Below are positions 5,332 to 54,908 of a stretch of DNA of 64,000 nt, in pieces. This DNA comes from an uncultured Bacteroidales bacterium. Its GTDB lineage: Bacteria > Bacteroidota > Bacteroidia > Bacteroidales > P3. The notes under the pieces are model-generated. The model searched no databases. It worked only from the letters and a program-made list of their open reading frames with translations, and was not told the DNA's origin. The position numbers and the translations under genes were made by a program. Location of the stretch: positions 143-64,142 of the forward strand of contig CALNBJ010000039.1 of NCBI GenBank assembly GCA_937874175.1, given 5' to 3'. The first letter of the stretch is position 1. Each line of letters opens with the position of its first letter.

Positions 5332-5413
5332 AGTAAGGTGGCACGATACTTTAGTAATGTGCCATGTTACTATAAGTATGGTGGCACGATACTCAAGTAA
5401 GGTGGCACCTTAT
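5332..5413. repeat. phased palindrome array, locus 1 (4 units, 21-22 bp period)
   Basis: The four units are AGTAAGGTGGCACGATACT, TAGTAATGTGCCATGTTACTA, AAGTATGGTGGCACGATACT and AGTAAGGTGGCACCTTAT. Unit centres fall at about 5341, 5362, 5384 and 5405. Confidence 0.85.
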
Positions 5414-5551: not shown

Positions 5552-5559
5552 TAATTTTG
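5552..5559 (+). promoter_or_regulatory. -7 promoter box TAATTTTG for the riboswitch-btuB transcript
   Basis: Exact TAnnTTTG match a few nt upstream of the riboswitch P1 stem. Confidence 0.5.
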
Positions 5560-5563
5560 CCTC

Positions 5564-5728
5564 GTTATTGGTTCTTTTTGGATTAATAGGGAATTAGGTG
5601 TGAATCCTAAACAGTCCCGCTGCTGTAAGCTCCTTTAGATAAGCAAGCATTACTTCTTTTGCCACTGAATTTATATTGATTTGGGAAGGCAGAATGCTTG
5701 GGAGTAAGTCAGAAGACCTGCCAATAGT
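5564..5728 (+). ncRNA. cobalamin (B12) riboswitch
   Basis: Conserved core AATAGGGAATTAGGTGTGAATCCTAAACAGTCCCGCTGCTGTAAG, then GCCACTG...GGGAAGGC. The B12 box is AGTCAGAAGACCTGCC. P1 pairs TATTGG (5566-5571) with CCAATA (5721-5726). A TonB-dependent receptor gene lies immediately downstream. Confidence 0.9.
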
Positions 5729-5774
5729 GTTTATTAACTTTTTATGTACTCTCGAGGAAAGAGTCTAAAATATT

Positions 5775-7787
5775 ATGATTAGAACATTTTTATCAGGTTT
5801 ATTACTCTTTGTATTTTTGTCGCCACTAATTTCATTGGCTCAAGAAAAGGATTCCATTAAAAGCATTATGCTTAATGAGGTGAAAATTACTGATTCCTTT
5901 TCCAAAGACTCTCTTTCCAAACAATCTTCCTCCGCTTTAGATTCAACAGTTATTAAAAAAATACCTTTTATTTCTGTTGGCGATATGGCAAAGTATATTG
6001 CTGGGGTTAGCGTAAGGGATTATGGTGGTGTTGGTGGATTAAAGACAATTTCTGTTAGAGGTTTGGGCTCAGGACATAGTGCTGTGGTTTACGATGGAGT
6101 TAGTGTTACTGATTTTCAAACTGGTCAGGTTGACTTGGGTAAGTTTTCTTCTGGAAACATTAAAGCAATTAATCTATTTAATGGTCAATCCTTCTCAATG
6201 CTTCAAACTGCAAGAGCCTTAGCCTTTGCAAATGTGTTTTTAATTGAAACTCAAAAACCACTGTTTGATAGCTTGCAAAGAATAAATGCATCAATTAAAA
6301 CTTCTTATGGCTCTTTTAATTATGGTAATTTGGGTTTGAATTTGGCTTATAAAGTAAATAATATATGGACTTCGTGGTTGGATTTGGATATTCAAAACAC
6401 AAAGGGGAATTATCCTTATTTGCTTCGTTATGGATTTGGTGAAAATGACTCTACATCAAAGGAAATTAGACAAAATTCCGATTATTTTGGGTTTAGAGGA
6501 GAATGGAATGCCTTTGCAAGCTTCAATTCTAAAACGGATTTAAAGCTAAAAGCCTATTATTTCTATTCTGAAAGAGGTTTACCAATGAGTACAACTCTCT
6601 ACTATTTGAATTCTTCACAAAGACTTTGGGATGAAAACTTCTTTTTGCAGAGTATATTCACACATAACTTCAATAAACGTCTTTCTTATCGCAATCATGC
6701 AAAGGCACTCTACTCTTTCTCCCATTTTCTTGACCCAAAAACCTTAAATCTTTCGGGTTTCCAAAGCGATAAATATTATCAAAGGGAATATTATTTGAAT
6801 AATGTTGCTTCCTATTTACTTGTGAAAGATTTAACTTTAGCTCTTAGCAACGATATTTTTCTTAATAATTTAAATGCTCCTTCTTCATTCTATTCAAAAG
6901 CAAATAGAACATCTTCAATCTCTGCCTTAAGTCTGCTTTTAAATAATTCCAAACTTCTAATCAATGCTAATATTTTGCACAACTATGTTTTGGATTATGA
7001 AGATAAGGAAAAGACTCAAAAAACTCAAAGCCACTTCTCTCCTTTTCTTTCAATTGGTTACACGTGGGAAGAAACCTTTACCATAAGTGCATTTTATAAG
7101 GATGTATTTCGAATGCCTTCCTTCAACGATTTATATTTTAACAGGGTAAGTTTTGCATCACTTGAGCCAGAAAAAGCCAAGCAATGGAATATTCATACAG
7201 AATTTTCTAAGAAGTTTGATTCTTACAAATCAAGTTTTATTTCTCTTTCCATTGATGCCTATTATAATAATGTAGAAGATAAAATTATTGCCGTTCCTCA
7301 AAGAAATTTATTTGTTTGGTCAATCATTAATTATGGAAGAGTTGAAATAAAAGGATTGGATATTCAATCTTCTTTCAGAACTTACCTTCCTTTTTCTTTG
7401 GATTTAAACCTTAGGGCAACCTATTCCTATCAAAAAGCCACGGATGTTTCAAATCCAAACGCACTAACCTTTAATCATCAAATTCCTTATACACCTATTC
7501 ACTCAGGTTCATTCTTTTTGAATATTACTCATCCATTAATAGACCTTGCATACACCATTAATTTTGTGGGTAAACGCTTTGCTCTTGCTGAAAACATTGA
7601 TAGAAATATGCTAAAGCCCTATCAAGACCACTCAATAACACTTTCTAAGGATTTCTTTTTGAAAAATAATAAGATAAATATAGGCCTATCTTGTCTTAAT
7701 TTGTTTGGAGTGCAATATGAGGTAGTTCGCAACTATCCAATGCCCCAAAGACAATTTCGTATAAACTTAAAATTAGATTTAAAATGA
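5775..7787 (+). CDS. btuB: TonB-dependent outer-membrane receptor, BtuB-like (cobalamin uptake inferred from the riboswitch)
   Basis: 670 aa with a signal peptide and a plug-domain pattern (ISVRGLGSGHSAVVYDGVSVTD). The rest is a long beta-barrel. It is preceded by a B12 riboswitch. Confidence 0.8.
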   Translation: MIRTFLSGLLLFVFLSPLISLAQEKDSIKSIMLNEVKITDSFSKDSLSKQSSSALDSTVIKKIPFISVGDMAKYIAGVSVRDYGGVGGLKTISVRGLGSGHSAVVYDGVSVTDFQTGQVDLGKFSSGNIKAINLFNGQSFSMLQTARALAFANVFLIETQKPLFDSLQRINASIKTSYGSFNYGNLGLNLAYKVNNIWTSWLDLDIQNTKGNYPYLLRYGFGENDSTSKEIRQNSDYFGFRGEWNAFASFNSKTDLKLKAYYFYSERGLPMSTTLYYLNSSQRLWDENFFLQSIFTHNFNKRLSYRNHAKALYSFSHFLDPKTLNLSGFQSDKYYQREYYLNNVASYLLVKDLTLALSNDIFLNNLNAPSSFYSKANRTSSISALSLLLNNSKLLINANILHNYVLDYEDKEKTQKTQSHFSPFLSIGYTWEETFTISAFYKDVFRMPSFNDLYFNRVSFASLEPEKAKQWNIHTEFSKKFDSYKSSFISLSIDAYYNNVEDKIIAVPQRNLFVWSIINYGRVEIKGLDIQSSFRTYLPFSLDLNLRATYSYQKATDVSNPNALTFNHQIPYTPIHSGSFFLNITHPLIDLAYTINFVGKRFALAENIDRNMLKPYQDHSITLSKDFFLKNNKINIGLSCLNLFGVQYEVVRNYPMPQRQFRINLKLDLK

Positions 7788-8986: not shown

Positions 8987-10330
8987 ATGGAAAACAAAGT
9001 TACTTTTGGTTCTAAATTCGGTACTCTTGCCGTAGTTGGTGGAAGTGTTATTGGGCTTGGGAATATTTGGAGATTCCCCTATTTGGCAGGAAACAATGGA
9101 GGCTCAGCTTTTATTATTGTTTATATTCTTTGCAGTTTATCAATTGCCATTCCTATTATGATTAGCGAATTTGTAATTGGACGTTCAACTGGCAAAAATG
9201 CTTATGGAGCTTTCAAAGAACTTTCAAAGAAAAAGATTTGGAGATTTGTTGGATTGGCAGGAATTATAACAGTTTTCTTTATTTTTGGTTTTTATTCCGT
9301 TGTTGCTGGTTGGGCAATTTCTTTTATTCAAACCTCTCTTACAAGTGGCTTTACGGGGAAAGACCCTCAGGTAATTCATAGTAATTTTATTAACTATATT
9401 AATTCAGGATGGAAACCTACTTTTGCTGCAGGAGTATTTATTATTCTAACTGCTGGAATTGTTATTGGAGGAATTCAAAAAGGGATTGAAAGAGTTAATA
9501 AAATTCTTATGCCAATGCTTTTTTTAATCATAATTCTTCTATTCATTTATTCTACTTCTCTTTCAGGATTCTCTAATGCAATGGATTTTCTTCTAAAACC
9601 AGACTTTAGTAAATTAGGATTAAAATCTGTTATTGCTGCAATTGGACAATCCTTCTTTTCTATGAGCTTGGGAATGGGATGTATGATTACTTATGGCTCT
9701 TACATTAAACAAAAGTCTTCTCTTTCTGGAATTGCCCTAACAATTGGACTTGCGGACTTATCTGTTGCCCTTTTGGCTGGCTTTGCAATCTTTCCTGGAG
9801 TGTTTACTTTTGGAATTGAACCAACCTCTGGTCCTACTTTAATTTTTGAAACTCTTCCTTTAGTTTTTTCAATGATGCCTTTTGGTAATATATTTGCAAT
9901 ATTCTTTTTCTTCTTAGTTTTTATTGCTGCCATTACTTCATCTGTTTCAATGTTAGAACCGATTTGCTTGTTTACAATTCAAGAATTTAAACTATCAAGA
10001 ACTAAATCAATCGTTATAATTTCTATAATTATTTTCATTTTAGCTGTTCTTTGTGCCTATTCTCAAGTTGAAAATTCTTCAATTACATTATTTGGGAAAA
10101 ATCTTTTTGATGCACTAAATGATTTAACTGATAAATTCTTAATGCCAATTGGAGCTTTGCTAATAATTATATTTGTTGGTTGGTTTGCTAATAAAGAATT
10201 AGTAAGAAATCAATTTACTAATAATGGAACAATTTTAAACAAAGGATTTCAACTATATATTAATGTAGTAAGATACTTTGTCCCTTTGGTTCTATCATTA
10301 TTTATCCTTAATTTAATGGGATTACTCTAA
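8987..10330 (+). CDS. sodium-dependent transporter, neurotransmitter:sodium symporter (SNF/NSS) family
   Basis: N-terminal GLGNIWRFPYLAGNNGGSAF signature and about 11-12 TM helices. Confidence 0.85.
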   Translation: MENKVTFGSKFGTLAVVGGSVIGLGNIWRFPYLAGNNGGSAFIIVYILCSLSIAIPIMISEFVIGRSTGKNAYGAFKELSKKKIWRFVGLAGIITVFFIFGFYSVVAGWAISFIQTSLTSGFTGKDPQVIHSNFINYINSGWKPTFAAGVFIILTAGIVIGGIQKGIERVNKILMPMLFLIIILLFIYSTSLSGFSNAMDFLLKPDFSKLGLKSVIAAIGQSFFSMSLGMGCMITYGSYIKQKSSLSGIALTIGLADLSVALLAGFAIFPGVFTFGIEPTSGPTLIFETLPLVFSMMPFGNIFAIFFFFLVFIAAITSSVSMLEPICLFTIQEFKLSRTKSIVIISIIIFILAVLCAYSQVENSSITLFGKNLFDALNDLTDKFLMPIGALLIIIFVGWFANKELVRNQFTNNGTILNKGFQLYINVVRYFVPLVLSLFILNLMGLL

Positions 10331-16602: not shown

Positions 16603-16862
16603 TCCTAAAGCAAATATACAATATATAAAAAGTTTTGTCAAGTCTTTTTATAAAAAAAATGTATCCGACACTCTCAGATGCTTTGTAATTTCAATAAACT
16701 AAATTAGAATAATTAATGTCTTTTTATCCTTTTTCGATAAAATTGACTTGATTTTGTAGAAGCATCCTTTTACAAAAATCAAACAACTTGTTTTTCTATC
16801 TAAACCAAGAGCTTAACTCCTAAATCGAAGATTAGAAATAATTAAATAAGACTTCAATCTCA

Positions 16863-16945
16863 AAACAATGCCATTGTTTACTCAAAACAATGCCATTGTA
16901 TGACAAAAACAATGCGGTTGTTTTGACAAAACAATGGCATTGTTT
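16863..16945. repeat. phased palindrome array, locus 2 (4 units, exact 22-bp period)
   Basis: AAACAATGCCATTGTTT at 16863, AAACAATGCCATTGT at 16885, AAACAATGCGGTTGTTT at 16907 and AAACAATGGCATTGTTT at 16929. Confidence 0.9.
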
Positions 16946-17048
16946 TTAGTTCTAAAAGAAGTTTAGTTAGATTGAAAGCTTATAAAATTATTTTAAAAGC
17001 TTATTTACTGACTTTTATCTTTGATTAAATTGCAGGGAAATCTATTTC

Positions 17049-25114: not shown

Positions 25115-25218
25115 GTAAGGTGCCACCTTACTTAAGTATGGTGCCACCATACTATAATTATGGTACGACCATAACACAACTAAGGTACGACCATAACTAT
25201 ATTATGGTACGACCATAT
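25115..25218. repeat. phased palindrome array, locus 3 (5 units, 21-22 bp period)
   Basis: The five units are GTAAGGTGCCACCTTAC, AGTATGGTGCCACCATACT, TTATGGTACGACCATAA, CTAAGGTACGACCATAA and TTATGGTACGACCATAT. Their centres are at 25123, 25144, 25166, 25188 and 25210. Confidence 0.9.
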
Positions 25219-36196: not shown

Positions 36197-36320
36197 TCCT
36201 TATTCTATTTTACTAACTCCTTATTCTATTCTACTGAAACAAGGTTTTATTTTACTGAAATCAAGTTTTAATTTTTTCTTTCTTCGTTTTAATTTACCGC
36301 AAACAAGGTTTTATTTTTTG
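36197..36320. repeat. phased direct-repeat array, locus 4 (about 21-bp period, non-palindromic)
   Basis: TCCTTATTCTATT at 36197 and 36218; ACTGAAA at 36233 and 36254; AAGGTTTTATTTT at 36241 and 36305. Confidence 0.75.
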
Positions 36321-36454: not shown

Positions 36455-36496
36455 AAAAGAAAAAAGGACTTTAATTAGTTATAATCAAAGTCCTTT
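36455..36496 (-). terminator. terminator downstream of tRNA-Ser
   Basis: On the minus strand: AAAGGACTTT-loop-AAAGTCCTTT followed by a T-run. Confidence 0.65.
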
Positions 36497-36504
36497 TAAT
36501 GTTT

Positions 36505-36592
36505 TGGCGGAAAGTGAGGGATTCGAACCCCCGGACCTGTTACAGTCAACAGTTTTCAAGACTGCCGCAATCGACCACTCTGCCAACTTTCC
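36505..36592 (-). tRNA. tRNA-Ser (anticodon UGA), CCA encoded
   Basis: The reverse complement reads GGAAAGTTGGCAGAGTGGTCGATTGCGGCAGTCTTGAAAACTGTTGACTGTAACAGGTCCGGGGGTTCGAATCCCTCACTTTCCGCCA. It has a 7-bp acceptor stem, anticodon loop CTTGAAA, a long variable arm and the T-loop GGTTCGAATCC. Confidence 0.93.
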
Positions 36593-37787: not shown

Positions 37788-37881
37788 GGGGAAAGGGATC
37801 AAACATTGCTGGCTTTATAAAAGTTGCTGATTCAATGATTGAACTTGGCGTTTGCTAAGCTAAATAATTGACAATAATATG

Positions 37882-37911
37882 AAAGCGTCTCAGAAATGAG
37901 ACGCTTTTTTT
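37882..37911 (+). terminator. rho-independent terminator; also the left copy of the AAAGCGTCTCA repeat
   Basis: AGCGTCTCA-GAAA-TGAGACGCT followed by T7. Confidence 0.85.
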
Positions 37912-37934
37912 GTTTATATGTCGAATAATATTTC

Positions 37935-37942
37935 TACTTTTG
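37935..37942 (+). promoter_or_regulatory. -7 box TACTTTTG for the two-nuclease operon
   Basis: Exact TAnnTTTG match inside the longest ORF, 27 nt upstream of the internal ATG at 37969. This argues for the shorter start. Confidence 0.45.
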
Positions 37943-37968
37943 TCAAATTAATTTTAAATCAAAATTAT

Positions 37969-38802
37969 ATGACAAAAGGAATATTCAGTTCATTTAATGA
38001 GAATTCAAAACTATTTGAAATTCTTAAGAAAGAACCGCCTATTTGGTGGAAGAATATTAAATCTGATAAAGACTTAAATATTGAACTTAGAAAAGATAAC
38101 TATATTAATATCTATTACTATGGAGGTTGTGTCGCAAAGATATGGTATGATAATAAACTTCATGCAGAAACACATCATAAGTATTTAAATCTTCCTCAAA
38201 AAGGGGAAACAATTTATTTGGATTCTATAGATTATCTTAGTAGTGATAAAAAAATAAATGATATTAAATCAGCAATCAGTGATATTTTTCTTAATGATAA
38301 TATTGAAGGGGATCAAAAAAGAAAAGATAAAAAACTAACTGAATCTTGTGAAAAAAAAGTACAAGGAAGATTAATACTTGATTCAAAAGTTAATTATATA
38401 GATTCAGAATTTGCATATAATAGGTCAAAACAAAGAATTCGTTTTGATTTGATAAAAGTTGAAGATGGATCGATTTCATTTGTTGAACTTAAACTTATTA
38501 GTGATTCAAGATTAACTTCAAAAAAGGATAATGAGATAGAGATAATAACTCAAATGAATAAATATTCTGAGTTTATTCAAGATTATAAAGAGGATATTAT
38601 CCCATACTATAAAAAACTTTTAAATGTAAAGCAAAGTTTGGGGATAATTGATGACATCCCTGAAATAAAAGAACTGAATTTCAAACCTCAACTATTAATA
38701 ATTAATAATTATCTTGGTAAAGGTATTAAAGTTAGAGATAATAGAATTGATAGAATAAAAAAGATCATTTCAAACCAAAAATTTGATTTTGAAATAAGAT
38801 AA
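37969..38802 (+). CDS. hypothetical protein with a C-terminal PD-(D/E)xK-like nuclease motif
   Basis: 277 aa from the internal Met. Contains ESCEKKVQGRL ... IRFDLIKVEDGSISFVELKLISD, i.e. E, then D-x13-E-x-K. The N-terminal 150 aa have no motif I recognise. Confidence 0.5.
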   Translation: MTKGIFSSFNENSKLFEILKKEPPIWWKNIKSDKDLNIELRKDNYINIYYYGGCVAKIWYDNKLHAETHHKYLNLPQKGETIYLDSIDYLSSDKKINDIKSAISDIFLNDNIEGDQKRKDKKLTESCEKKVQGRLILDSKVNYIDSEFAYNRSKQRIRFDLIKVEDGSISFVELKLISDSRLTSKKDNEIEIITQMNKYSEFIQDYKEDIIPYYKKLLNVKQSLGIIDDIPEIKELNFKPQLLIINNYLGKGIKVRDNRIDRIKKIISNQKFDFEIR

Positions 38803-38803
38803 G

Positions 38804-40060
38804 ATGGAAATAATAATTCATAGAGGGACAAAAGAAATTGGAGGAACTTGCGTTGAGTTAATAATTAATAAGAAAAGACTATTATTAGATATTGGACTTC
38901 CTTTAGATTATGATTCTTGGTCGGATGAGCAAAGACAAAAATATGAGAATAAGATGTCTTCAATTATTCAAAAAGCAGATGCAATTTTCCTATCTCATTA
39001 TCATCAGGATCATACTGGATTGTTAAATATTGTATCAGAAAGAATGCCAATATATCTTAGTGATCCAACAATAAGAGCAATTAGAATACCTGAAATGTTT
39101 TTTGGAGATGTATTTAAGGGTTTTAATTTTATTCCAATCTATCATAGAAAAGCAATTACTGAGATTGAAGGAGTAAGGATTATCCCTTATAGAGTTGATC
39201 ATTCTGCTTTTGGAGCAATGGCATTTCTTATTGAAGATTTAAAGTCAAACAAAACTATTCTCTACACTGGAGATATTAGACTGCATGGATTAAGTAAAAC
39301 AAGTTATTTAAGTCTAAAACAAAATGTAGATTACATGTTGCTGGAAGGTACAAATATTGGGAGAGAATCCAACGAAATAATCAAATCAGAACAGCAAGTC
39401 TTTGAAAACTTTGTAAATATATTTAATTCATATCCTTCACATCTTAATTATGTATGGGCATCATCTCTAAATATTGATAGGATAAATTTACTATATGATG
39501 CTTGTGAGAAAACAAATAAGATATTAGCAGTTGATTTCTTTACTATGAATATCCTAAAATCAATGTATAAACATCATAATGTGCCTTATGGAAGTTCCAA
39601 TCGTTATATAAGATGTTTCTATCCAAATTATTTAACTTCATATATTAAAAGAATTCAACATAGAGATTATCTGATTAACTGTGTTCACTGGTGTAAGGTA
39701 AGTAAAACAGAAATAAAAGAAAATCCGTCTAAATATGTAGTTATGATTCGTCCAAGTATGATAGAAGACTTAAAGTATATTGATGCCAATAATGCAAATT
39801 ACATAACCTCAATATGGAAAGAATATGAGAGGGATGAAAAATACAAATCATTCTTTGAATACATTAATAATAAAGGATATAATAAGTTTTATAATCACAC
39901 AAGTGGACATGCTTTTGTTGAAGGCTTAAAGGAGTTAAATCAATATCTAAATCCTAAAACAATAATCCCAATTCATACACAAGAAGCTAATCAATACAAA
40001 GATATTTTTCCTGATTCCAATATCTTACAACTTTCAGACGGAAAAAGAACATTGCTATAG
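38804..40060 (+). CDS. metallo-beta-lactamase-fold nuclease of beta-CASP type
   Basis: MBL motifs IGGTCVEL, LSHYHQDHTG and YTGDIRLHG. An inserted domain follows, then the C-terminal HTSGHA and IPIHT motifs typical of beta-CASP enzymes. The start lies 1 nt after the upstream stop. Confidence 0.65.
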   Translation: MEIIIHRGTKEIGGTCVELIINKKRLLLDIGLPLDYDSWSDEQRQKYENKMSSIIQKADAIFLSHYHQDHTGLLNIVSERMPIYLSDPTIRAIRIPEMFFGDVFKGFNFIPIYHRKAITEIEGVRIIPYRVDHSAFGAMAFLIEDLKSNKTILYTGDIRLHGLSKTSYLSLKQNVDYMLLEGTNIGRESNEIIKSEQQVFENFVNIFNSYPSHLNYVWASSLNIDRINLLYDACEKTNKILAVDFFTMNILKSMYKHHNVPYGSSNRYIRCFYPNYLTSYIKRIQHRDYLINCVHWCKVSKTEIKENPSKYVVMIRPSMIEDLKYIDANNANYITSIWKEYERDEKYKSFFEYINNKGYNKFYNHTSGHAFVEGLKELNQYLNPKTIIPIHTQEANQYKDIFPDSNILQLSDGKRTLL

Positions 40061-40100
40061 ATAAGGAGTTTAAATAAGATAATATGGAGTTTCGCCTCAA

Positions 40101-40330
40101 TTTATAAAGTCTTTGGGTTATCTTTATAAAGTCTTTAGGGTAAAAAGACTTCGTTTTTATGATTCAAGAGTGGCATTCTTGTCCTTCAAGAGTAGCACTC
40201 TTAATGCTCAAGAATGCCACTCTTGAAATCAATTAAGCTTATTAATTCATCCAAAAGACTTCAACAAACTACCCCAAAGACTTTATTAATTCACCCCAAA
40301 GACTTTGTTAATTCACCCCAAAGACTTTGT
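40101..40330. repeat. dyad-symmetric phased palindrome super-array, locus 5 (10-11 sites, 22-bp period)
   Basis: AAAGTCTTT sites are centred at 40110 and 40132. The three central palindromes are CAAGAGTGGCATTCTTG, CAAGAGTAGCACTCTTA and CAAGAATGCCACTCTTG, centred at 40173, 40195 and 40217. AAAGACTTT sites are centred at 40258, 40280, 40302 and 40324. The whole array is symmetric about 40195. Confidence 0.9.
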
Positions 40331-40511
40331 TTTATATCAGAAAGAATGCATGTTTCTACAATAAATATCTTGATTTAATGTTGAATATTACACGTTTTAT
40401 ATAATTTTAGAGTGATTTTATAGTTATTAGTTTAGATTTTAATTGTTATTTTTTGACAGTGTTACATAATACGTAACACTCTATTTATTAATTTTTAAAC
40501 CTATTTTAATT

Positions 40512-40937
40512 ATGGGAAAAAGATATGGTACTTGGAAAAGGAAGTTTAAAGACGCTTCTGGAGAAGAAAAAGAATTGTATTATGCCTGTTCAAGAAGGGG
40601 AAATGTGACTGATTTTGATGGATTAGCAGAAATAATTACTGAGATTTCTTCTCTTAGTAAAGGAGATATTTTGTCTTCGCTCACCAATATTGAGCAGGTT
40701 ATGTTATGGAAATTGATTGATGGAGATTCTGTTCGTTTTGGGGATATTGGAACTTTTAGTATTGCTGTAACAAGTGATGGATTTGAAAATCCAGAAGATA
40801 TAACTCCTGATAAGGTAAGGGCAACAAAGATTGTTTTCACCCCTACTAAGAAGTTTAATAAACTACTTTTGGAGATGAAATTCACCAATTACGATAAACG
40901 ATTAAGAAAAGCTTTAGGTAAAAGATATTCTAAATAG
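40512..40937 (+). CDS. HU-like (HU_HIG-type) histone-like DNA-binding protein, second paralog
   Basis: 141 aa. The segment LAEIITEISSLSKGDILSSLTNIEQVM...VRFGDIGTFSIAVTSDGF aligns with the ORF at 4730-5131. Confidence 0.7.
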   Translation: MGKRYGTWKRKFKDASGEEKELYYACSRRGNVTDFDGLAEIITEISSLSKGDILSSLTNIEQVMLWKLIDGDSVRFGDIGTFSIAVTSDGFENPEDITPDKVRATKIVFTPTKKFNKLLLEMKFTNYDKRLRKALGKRYSK

Positions 40938-54846: not shown

Positions 54847-54908
54847 AAAGATGCACATCTTTCATACCAAAAGATGCACATCTTTCACTATAAAAGATGT
54901 GCATCTTT
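54847..54908. repeat. phased palindrome array, locus 6 (3 units, exact 23-bp period)
   Basis: AAAGATGCACATCTTT at 54847 and 54870; AAAGATGTGCATCTTT at 54893. Confidence 0.9.

Follow-up and report, generated by a model that had tools for sequence, protein, structure and literature searches.

A nuclease gene pair in an uncultured Bacteroidales bacterium, composed of a RecB/Cas4-type PD-(D/E)xK protein and a metallo-beta-lactamase of the beta-CASP type, is a candidate undescribed defence module

The roles so far known for nucleases of the beta-CASP type of the metallo-beta-lactamase (MBL) fold lie in RNA processing, DNA repair and type VII CRISPR. The described systems closest to the locus presented here are the beta-CASP nucleases of the RNase J, CPSF73 and Integrator-11 families, the RecB/Cas4-type nucleases of defence proteins such as Can2/Card1, Cdn1 and Shedu SduA, and defence systems in which a constant component works with interchangeable nucleases, such as Lamassu, Avs2-MBL and HamMAB. 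Effectors of the MBL fold are known in defence (PMC13069673; 10.1101/2025.09.30.679545). Here we describe two adjoining genes, A and B, in a stretch of 64,000 nucleotides (nt) from an uncultured Bacteroidales bacterium (assembly GCA_937874175.1, contig CALNBJ010000039.1, positions 143 to 64,142 of the forward strand), which is called the window throughout. Gene A (37969..38802, + strand, an open reading frame (ORF) of 277 amino acids (aa)) encodes a predicted PD-(D/E)xK nuclease, and gene B (38804..40060, + strand, 418 aa) encodes a predicted beta-CASP nuclease. We consider it somewhat probable that A-B serves as a nuclease-based module for defence or against mobile elements, in which A senses and cuts and B is an exchangeable degrading effector; the function is read from the genomic context. 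The initial annotation of the window had singled out the pair as a candidate undescribed defence or DNA-processing module, and the analysis supports it as such a candidate.

A and B are one unit. We compared 50 species-representative genome loci, retrieved via A, and 9 metagenome loci; conserved neighbours were compared over 57 loci, and linkage was counted in the 48 species genomes with a complete A gene. B is found with A in 42 of these 48 genomes, overlapping or abutting it in 37 (by -26 to -1 nt), lying within 1.3 kb of it in 4 more, one of them split by a DDE transposase, and standing upstream of it in 1. In the window, the junction reads TAA-G-ATG, so B starts after a spacer of 1 nt, as annotated. 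Across the 57 loci, A and B are the only conserved genes, and the two are naturally fused in the proteins P0244 (734 aa) and P0316 (695 aa). The co-occurrence of homologues, which the initial annotation had named as a check, is thus very strong. In one Prevotella genome a DDE_3 transposase, an insertion sequence element, lies between A and B (L033:10762-11835) and disrupts the pair. In five A-B loci there is a small protein of 170-188 aa resembling a fragment of DNA polymerase III alpha (PF07733, 27 bits), which was placed at L054:10886-11398, in L055 and at L004:5731-6297 (- strand); in L054 and L055 it separates A from B.

The partners are exchangeable on both sides. A occurs without B in L014, L020 and L053, and it is alternatively fused to a second nuclease of the REase-ARP/PDDEXK_13 type (seven checked cases, namely six representatives and the L048 protein); another PD-(D/E)xK-like protein comes after A in one genome. 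B relatives are also paired with other small proteins unrelated to A. Two such partners, of 216 aa (L009) and 237 aa (L040), were considered as truncated forms of A and rejected, as their relation to A in hhalign is limited to the short catalytic motif; a Pfam scan of the two proteins gave no name. Across 49 loci, the pairwise identities of A are poorly correlated with those of B (Spearman 0.31), and they are discordant in both directions: the window and L011 share 55% identity in A and 93% in B, and L045 and L034 share 94% in A and 35% in B. Thus, A and B have recombined between lineages. Such recombination of partners is typical of systems built from exchangeable modules.

The A protein has an N-terminal domain (residues about 1-90), a helical linker and a PD-(D/E)xK nuclease domain (residues about 125-277). 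Over an alignment of 28 diverse homologues, W26-W27, R41-K42-D43-N44, N47, Y49 and G52 are invariant in the N-terminal part, and E128, Q132, D145-S-E147, R158, D160, E173, K175, Q195 and Y199 in the C-terminal part. The set of E, D, ExK and QxxxY among them is the signature of RecB/Cas4-type PD-(D/E)xK nucleases. The predicted catalytic codons span 38350..38565 on the + strand and are invariant in the 28 homologues: E128 (38350-52, the second E of ESCEKK), D160 (38446-48), E173 (38485-87), K175 (38491-93), Q195 (38551-53) and Y199 (38563-65), all on the + strand. The nuclease core recognised by the initial annotation, with E128, D160, E173 and K175, is present and invariant; its spacing had to be corrected from x13 to x12, giving D-x12-E-x-K. 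The AlphaFold (AF2) model of A has a mean predicted local distance difference test (pLDDT) score of 94.2. Its core consists of helix 128-138, strands 143-152, 155-165 and 168-176, helix 191-205 and strand 241-245, an alpha-beta-beta-beta-alpha-beta order, and the catalytic residues sit on helix 128-138, strands 155-165 and 168-176, and helix 191-205. By its motifs and modelled fold, A is a member of the RecB/Cas4-type PD-(D/E)xK family with a predicted intact catalytic site. A was also considered as Cas4 proper and rejected, since no cysteine is found among the invariant columns and no CRISPR array in the 64-kb window.

The family of A is large and falls outside the libraries searched. Neither Pfam, NCBIfam release 20.0 (June 2026), PADLOC-DB v2.0.0 (scanned with the A and B proteins at E up to 1) nor PHROGs contains a family matching A. 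In Foldseek searches of the full-length model against PDB and BFVD, the matches are weak (best E 0.04) and all are PD-(D/E)xK nucleases, including Can2, Cdn1, cap-snatching endonucleases and Shedu, with template modelling (TM) scores of 0.28 or lower; the 28-homologue profile gave zero matches to PDB sequences at E up to 10. The N-terminal 120 residues, modelled separately, reach a pLDDT of 88, and this model finds no match in a structure search of the PDB (best E about 1); the initial annotation had likewise seen no motif in this part, and the family libraries and PDB folds offer none. A first search returned 370 clusters at 90% identity, and a scan of 1.84 billion representatives with the A profile yielded 1,351 clusters with E of at most 1e-3; with E of at most 1e-10 there are 586. 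No relatives of A were found in 2.9 million viral contigs (IMG/VR) or in 50,697 GenBank phage records.

The B protein matches Lactamase_B_2 (34.4 bits) and RMMBL (25.5 bits, residues 362-394) of Pfam above cut-off. Over 22 diverse sequences, the conserved set is D29, H65/H67/D69/H70, H133, D157, E181, H369 and H391, with H67 and H70 invariant and H65 and D69 conserved in at least 90%; H365, S367, G368, H369, A370 and H391 of the late motifs are invariant. The HxHxDH metal-binding motif (H65-Y-H67-Q-D69-H70) lies at 38996..39013, and beta-CASP motifs B (HTSGHA, H365-H369) and C (IPIH391T) at 39896..39976, both on the + strand; these are the motifs that the initial annotation had listed, and all are conserved. 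Motif C is a histidine, i.e. of the CPSF/RNase J type. Since MBL motifs 1-4 and beta-CASP motifs A-C are all present, B is, as far as its motifs tell, a complete beta-CASP MBL nuclease. Its best relative in the PDB is EF2904 (2az4, E 5.4e-15). B was tried as a repair nuclease of the SNM1/Artemis/Apollo type and rejected on the invariant H391 of motif C and the RMMBL rather than DRMBL match; the match to the Apollo 5' exonuclease is weak (E 1e-4) and covers the MBL core. B was also tried as Cas14 of type VII CRISPR and rejected, as NF045584 scores 26.5 bits against a cut-off of 800 and covers the N-terminal 70 residues only, and as the window has no CRISPR array. PADLOC returned zero families for B, and Pfam, NCBIfam and PHROGs returned nothing beyond generic MBL domains; the pair as a whole matches no described system in these libraries.

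The reading of A-B as a defence module comes from where the relatives are found. We scanned 278 neighbour clusters within 5 kb of A-B with PADLOC models. Among the many strong matches are restriction proteins of types I, IIG, III and IV as well as MADS, PbeA, TmtA, UzuA, SspH and AbiEi, and PDC-S01/S04/S26 were also matched. A WYL-domain regulator lies beside A-B in seven loci and in Cupriavidus, a small metallophosphoesterase corresponding to the PADLOC candidate PDC-S10 (E 2.6e-76) lies beside it in eight loci, and PDC-S01 ATPases are also near A-B in relatives. A tyrosine integrase adjoins the pair in nine loci. The betaproteobacterial A-B is found on a Cupriavidus megaplasmid, flanked by a WYL regulator and a PLD-like nuclease and with Tn3 alongside, and the neighbours of plasmid-borne B relatives include restriction-modification genes, DUF262 genes, a relaxase and a WYL regulator. 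Homologues thus do sit among defence genes, WYL regulators and integrases, as the initial annotation had suggested should be checked. Its description of the operon as an orphan holds for the window; many relatives carry the WYL regulator and the metallophosphoesterase. In Prevotella sp. LMAG:51 we observed an extended seven-gene module (L004:6391-12331) whose genes encode, in this order, a WYL regulator, a sigma-70-like protein of 224 aa, A, a protein of 109 aa, B, a protein of 247 aa and a PDC-S10 metallophosphoesterase of 361 aa. The 247-aa protein has a D...ExK-like motif by eye, and a relaxase and a PDC-S01 ATPase are nearby.

We propose the following mechanism for the defence module. As a two-subunit nuclease module, A and B would act as one complex and most probably guard the cell against phages or other incoming DNA. 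A would be the constant subunit that senses or targets: with its N-terminal domain it would recognise a nucleic-acid feature of the invader or of the infection, and its nuclease would make the first cut. B would be the exchangeable effector, degrading nucleic acid from the entry point made by A; its substrate may be DNA, or RNA given the histidine of motif C. As an outcome, the invader would be destroyed or the infected cell arrested. In the fuller versions, the WYL-domain regulator probably activates the operon once DNA is damaged or the cell is infected, and the small metallophosphoesterase PDC-S10 may add a further activity.

Several points weigh against this proposal. The apparent enrichment of defence genes around the relatives' A-B is suggestive, being read from the 278 neighbour clusters on their own, and the PADLOC models for methyltransferases and helix-turn-helix proteins are generic. 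The flanks in the window are ordinary, with no defence gene, integrase or WYL regulator nearby. Some A-B loci carry DnaE-like or DnaQ-like genes, and WYL regulators govern DNA-damage responses as well. That A and B interact, in which order they act and on what substrate, what the N-terminal domain does and what the pair does for the cell are all points that we infer.

Four alternatives were weighed. First, A-B may be a module for the repair or processing of damaged DNA, with B acting as an SNM1/Artemis-like nuclease on blocked or cross-linked ends, A as a RecB-like end-processing enzyme, and WYL regulators of the PafBC/DriD type inducing the operon on sensing single-stranded DNA. The WYL regulators beside the pair in seven loci and in Cupriavidus would fit such a role, as would the DnaE PHP-domain gene, small polymerase III alpha-like fragment or DEDDh 3'-5' exonuclease of some loci, an AddAB-like pair adjoining a B relative in Ochrobactrum, and the weak Apollo match (E 1e-4). 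However, A-B is patchy, cassette-like, reshuffled in its partners, integrase-adjacent and plasmid-borne, which repair genes usually are not; motif C of B is the RNA-type histidine and not the valine of SNM1/Artemis, with RMMBL and not DRMBL in Pfam; and the neighbours are mostly restriction and other defence genes. We regard a repair role as unlikely.

Second, the pair may serve a mobile element rather than host immunity, as an addiction, exclusion or DNA-processing device for the maintenance, transfer or competition of the element. Tyrosine integrases and a DUF5906 primase-like gene adjoin the pair in nine loci, a relaxase is nearby in Prevotella and Tn3 beside the Cupriavidus copy, B relatives reside on mobilisable and conjugative plasmids, and the cassette itself has relocated. 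Yet many copies, such as those in the window and in L001/L011, lie between housekeeping genes with no element near, and no transfer or replication gene is conserved with the pair. This explanation, which we hold to be rather improbable, overlaps heavily with the defence reading, since defence genes commonly ride such elements.

Third, A may be a restriction-type endonuclease that works alone, such as a type IV-like enzyme of the modification-dependent sort, and may be the real effector, with B as an accessory that only recycles or trims the products. The absence of B from L014, L020 and L053, the occurrence of other second nucleases with A, and the lack of an accompanying methyltransferase, which fits a modification-dependent or methylation-independent enzyme, would agree with this. 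Against it, B is present in 42 of the 48 genomes, often with overlapping frames and in some proteins fused to A, the catalytic residues of B are invariant, and A is hardly ever without an attached second nuclease of one sort or another; we give this explanation little credence. Finally, that B is a housekeeping RNase J-like RNA-processing enzyme with A as an unrelated neighbour is effectively refuted: some relatives are labelled 'ribonuclease J' by the Joint Genome Institute (JGI), the best NCBIfam match is an RNase J subfamily model and motif C is of the RNA type, but B scores 50.6 bits against a cut-off of 400 for TIGR00649 (covering model positions 5-249 of 546) and 36.3 against 820 for RnjA, it has 418 aa and is without the C-terminal region of the 546-position model, and its family is patchy, plasmid-borne, reshuffled and tied to A by overlap and fusion, so that B is not the RNase J ortholog that the initial annotation had warned of.

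Returning to A-B as a defence module, a bolder form of the proposal can be put forward tentatively. A might found an unrecognised family of infection-sensing nucleases, comprising some 1,350 clusters at 50% identity and lacking a model in Pfam, whose N-terminal fold, unmatched in the PDB, would recognise a nucleic-acid feature of the invader and license interchangeable second nucleases. A new and widespread immune hub of Bacteroidota would then exist, moving as a minimal cassette of 2.3 kb. We consider this possible.

The window copy appears to be the minimal two-gene form, with a predicted promoter of its own. Upstream of A, a terminator scan finds an intrinsic-terminator hairpin with a T-run (37881..37908, + strand; 12 pairs, 5 GC), whose stem is invariant across seven aligned upstream regions of relatives. 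It is followed by TACTTTTG (37934..37941, + strand), a candidate -7 promoter element by its fit to TAnnTTTG, 27 nt 5' of the A start. TAnnTTTG is the -7 promoter consensus of Bacteroidetes/Bacteroides. At the aligned position, TA(C/T)(C/T)TTTG is found in six of the seven upstream regions, and in the remaining one, L011, TACCTTTG lies a few bases further downstream; the -7 box just after a strong terminator, proposed at first from the window, is therefore conserved in relatives together with its hairpin. A longer ORF for A would start at the ATG at 37918 (294 aa), 10 nt 3' of the terminator stem. The methionine at 37969 is the likelier start, because distant homologues align from this point and the ATG at 37918 precedes the -7 element; the 37918 start was rejected on these grounds. 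An Rfam scan of the upstream region and the repeat array described below gave nothing above the gathering score; the only such match in the stretch scanned is the upstream tRNA-Ser (anticodon TGA, 36505-36592, - strand), 1.2 kb upstream of the cassette and preceded by a terminator-like hairpin of 36 nt (36462-36497).

The A-B cassette has moved as a block. The sole part of the region common to related genomes is a stretch of 2.27 kb (37792..40060, + strand), and blastn alignments with L011, L012 and L013 are confined to 37792-40059 and have unrelated flanks. At the upstream end of the cassette, directly after the stop codon of the deoxyhypusine synthase gene, lies a remnant of gdhA, the last 21 codons plus stop (37793..37858, + strand; GSNIAGFIKVADSMIELGVC and the stop codon), which was recognised by tblastn with the glutamate dehydrogenase (GDH) of relatives (residues 424-444, 81% identity, E 4.6e-6). 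The same tblastn search gave no other GDH match in the window, and no gdh gene is present. In L001, L010, L011, L013 and L052, A-B is downstream of gdhA, with other genes intervening in L013 and L052. Because the cassette carries the 3' remnant of GDH while the window is without a gdh gene, the window cassette was copied or moved from its usual place just behind gdhA. The predicted upstream terminator was inherited with the gdhA 3' end. In two relatives, the gdhA 3' end and terminator are doubled (L013:8006-8162 and 9841-10000; L052:4664-4846 and 6474-6645). The two copies of this segment form a direct repeat of about 150 nt, and in L013 they bracket two inserted genes between gdhA and A-B. 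This duplication in L013 and L052 suggests a recombination hot spot at the gdhA terminator.

The genes around the cassette in the window are SIMPL, radical SAM, GyrI-like and DUF1761 genes, tRNA-Ser and deoxyhypusine synthase upstream, and genes for an HU-HIG protein, a BcrAD-type activase, a TetR regulator and a BspA-like leucine-rich repeat (LRR) protein downstream. The likely island of the initial annotation thus holds in part: the 2.27-kb cassette has foreign junctions, but the flanking genes are ordinary. Its observation that the pair has no methyltransferase, helicase, ATPase or antitoxin-like gene next to it in the window was confirmed, and no methyltransferase is conserved among neighbours over the 57 loci.

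Between B and the HU-like gene lies a symmetrical intergenic array (40061-40340) with units spaced 22 nt. It is made up of two AAAGTCTTTGGG-type units, a palindrome with 31-nt arms (40163-40227) of TTCAAGAGTGGCA units and, on the far side, three or four CCCCAAAGACTTT units on the opposite strand. The motif occurs 5 times in the array, and at up to 1 mismatch it has 8 matches in the window against 0.5 expected. The motif was found in 0 of 63 related loci; therefore, the 22-nt array is not part of the A-B module. The HU-like gene, which the initial annotation had likewise named beside the pair, is also unrelated to the module. Downstream of the array, the HU-HIG/HU_rel DNA-binding family protein has 141 aa (40512-40937), and a related protein lies a few kb from A-B in L013. 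Five other tandem arrays with a period of 21-23 nt and different units are found at 5332-5408, 16861-16946, 25125-25217, 36227-36275 and 54847-54908; several of their units are partly palindromic by eye, and one array is about 140 nt upstream of a cobalamin riboswitch (5552-5739; 101.7 bits against a gathering score of 31.5). The tandem arrays look like a genome-wide style of binding-site arrays, with the units as candidate sites, and not like the mark of an island.

Far less is mapped of the defence systems of Bacteroidota than of those of E. coli or Bacillus. Bacteroidota and their phages shape the gut microbiome. If the defence reading of A-B is true, it would provide a new compact, partner-exchanging two-gene system that escapes PADLOC, NCBIfam and Pfam, a function for a sizeable protein family with an unrecognised domain, and the first biological role for the EF2904-like branch of beta-CASP proteins. 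It would also place PDC-S10, an orphan candidate of PADLOC, within a larger operon. The immune hub, if true, would belong to the dominant gut phylum and would have been invisible to current defence-finding tools. If A-B is a repair device instead, a mobile, WYL-controlled repair cassette would also be unusual. For the present, A-B is one of many candidate systems, credible and widespread, and its mechanism is still conjecture.

How does the pair compare with the described systems? The match of B to EF2904 of Enterococcus faecalis, an uncharacterised beta-CASP protein from structural genomics, spans the MBL core and the C-terminal SGHA...PIHT motifs at similar length (429 against 418 aa), with modest identity in the aligned stretches. 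With RNase J, CPSF73 and Integrator-11, B shares the fold, all seven catalytic motifs, the histidine of motif C and RMMBL. It differs from RNase J in lying far under the family cut-off (50.6 against 400 bits), in being without the C-terminal domain, and in being a mobile accessory gene that is coupled with a PD-(D/E)xK partner. With the RecB/Cas4-type nucleases, including Can2/Card1, Cdn1 and Shedu SduA, A shares E...D-x12-E-x-K...Q-x-x-x-Y on an alpha-beta-beta-beta-alpha core; however, the fold matches are non-significant, A has no conserved Fe-S cysteines, neither a CARF nor a DUF4263 domain, and no PADLOC Shedu match.

At the level of the system, no methyltransferase adjoins the pair or is conserved with it over the 57 loci, and A-B was therefore rejected as a restriction-modification system. 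Neither A nor B matches a component of any system in PADLOC-DB v2.0.0, among them Shedu, Hachiman, Gabija, Lamassu and the PDC candidates, and in the literature searched there is no paper describing the A-B pair; Avs2-MBL, HamMAB and 6A-MBL, the MBL-containing systems taken from the literature, proved to be unrelated to A-B. PDC-S10 and WYL-regulated defence operons of the BrxR or CapW type resemble the fuller versions, where PDC-S10 (eight loci) and WYL (seven loci) genes lie beside A-B; yet neither gene is present in the window, and PADLOC lists PDC-S10 as a single-gene candidate with no link to A-B. A further likeness is to Lamassu (LmuB with a variable LmuA), Avs2-MBL and HamMAB. A is likewise the constant partner of interchangeable nucleases, either a beta-CASP MBL or REase-ARP/PDDEXK_13, and its settings in relatives look defence-island-like. 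In contrast to them, A-B is without an ATPase, SMC, STAND or helicase component, its MBL is of the beta-CASP type, and there is no sequence relation (zero PADLOC matches); the likeness is one of logic and not of membership. We place A-B, as a candidate, among the nuclease gene pairs of defence islands, with an unrecognised protein family and domain as the new element at its centre.

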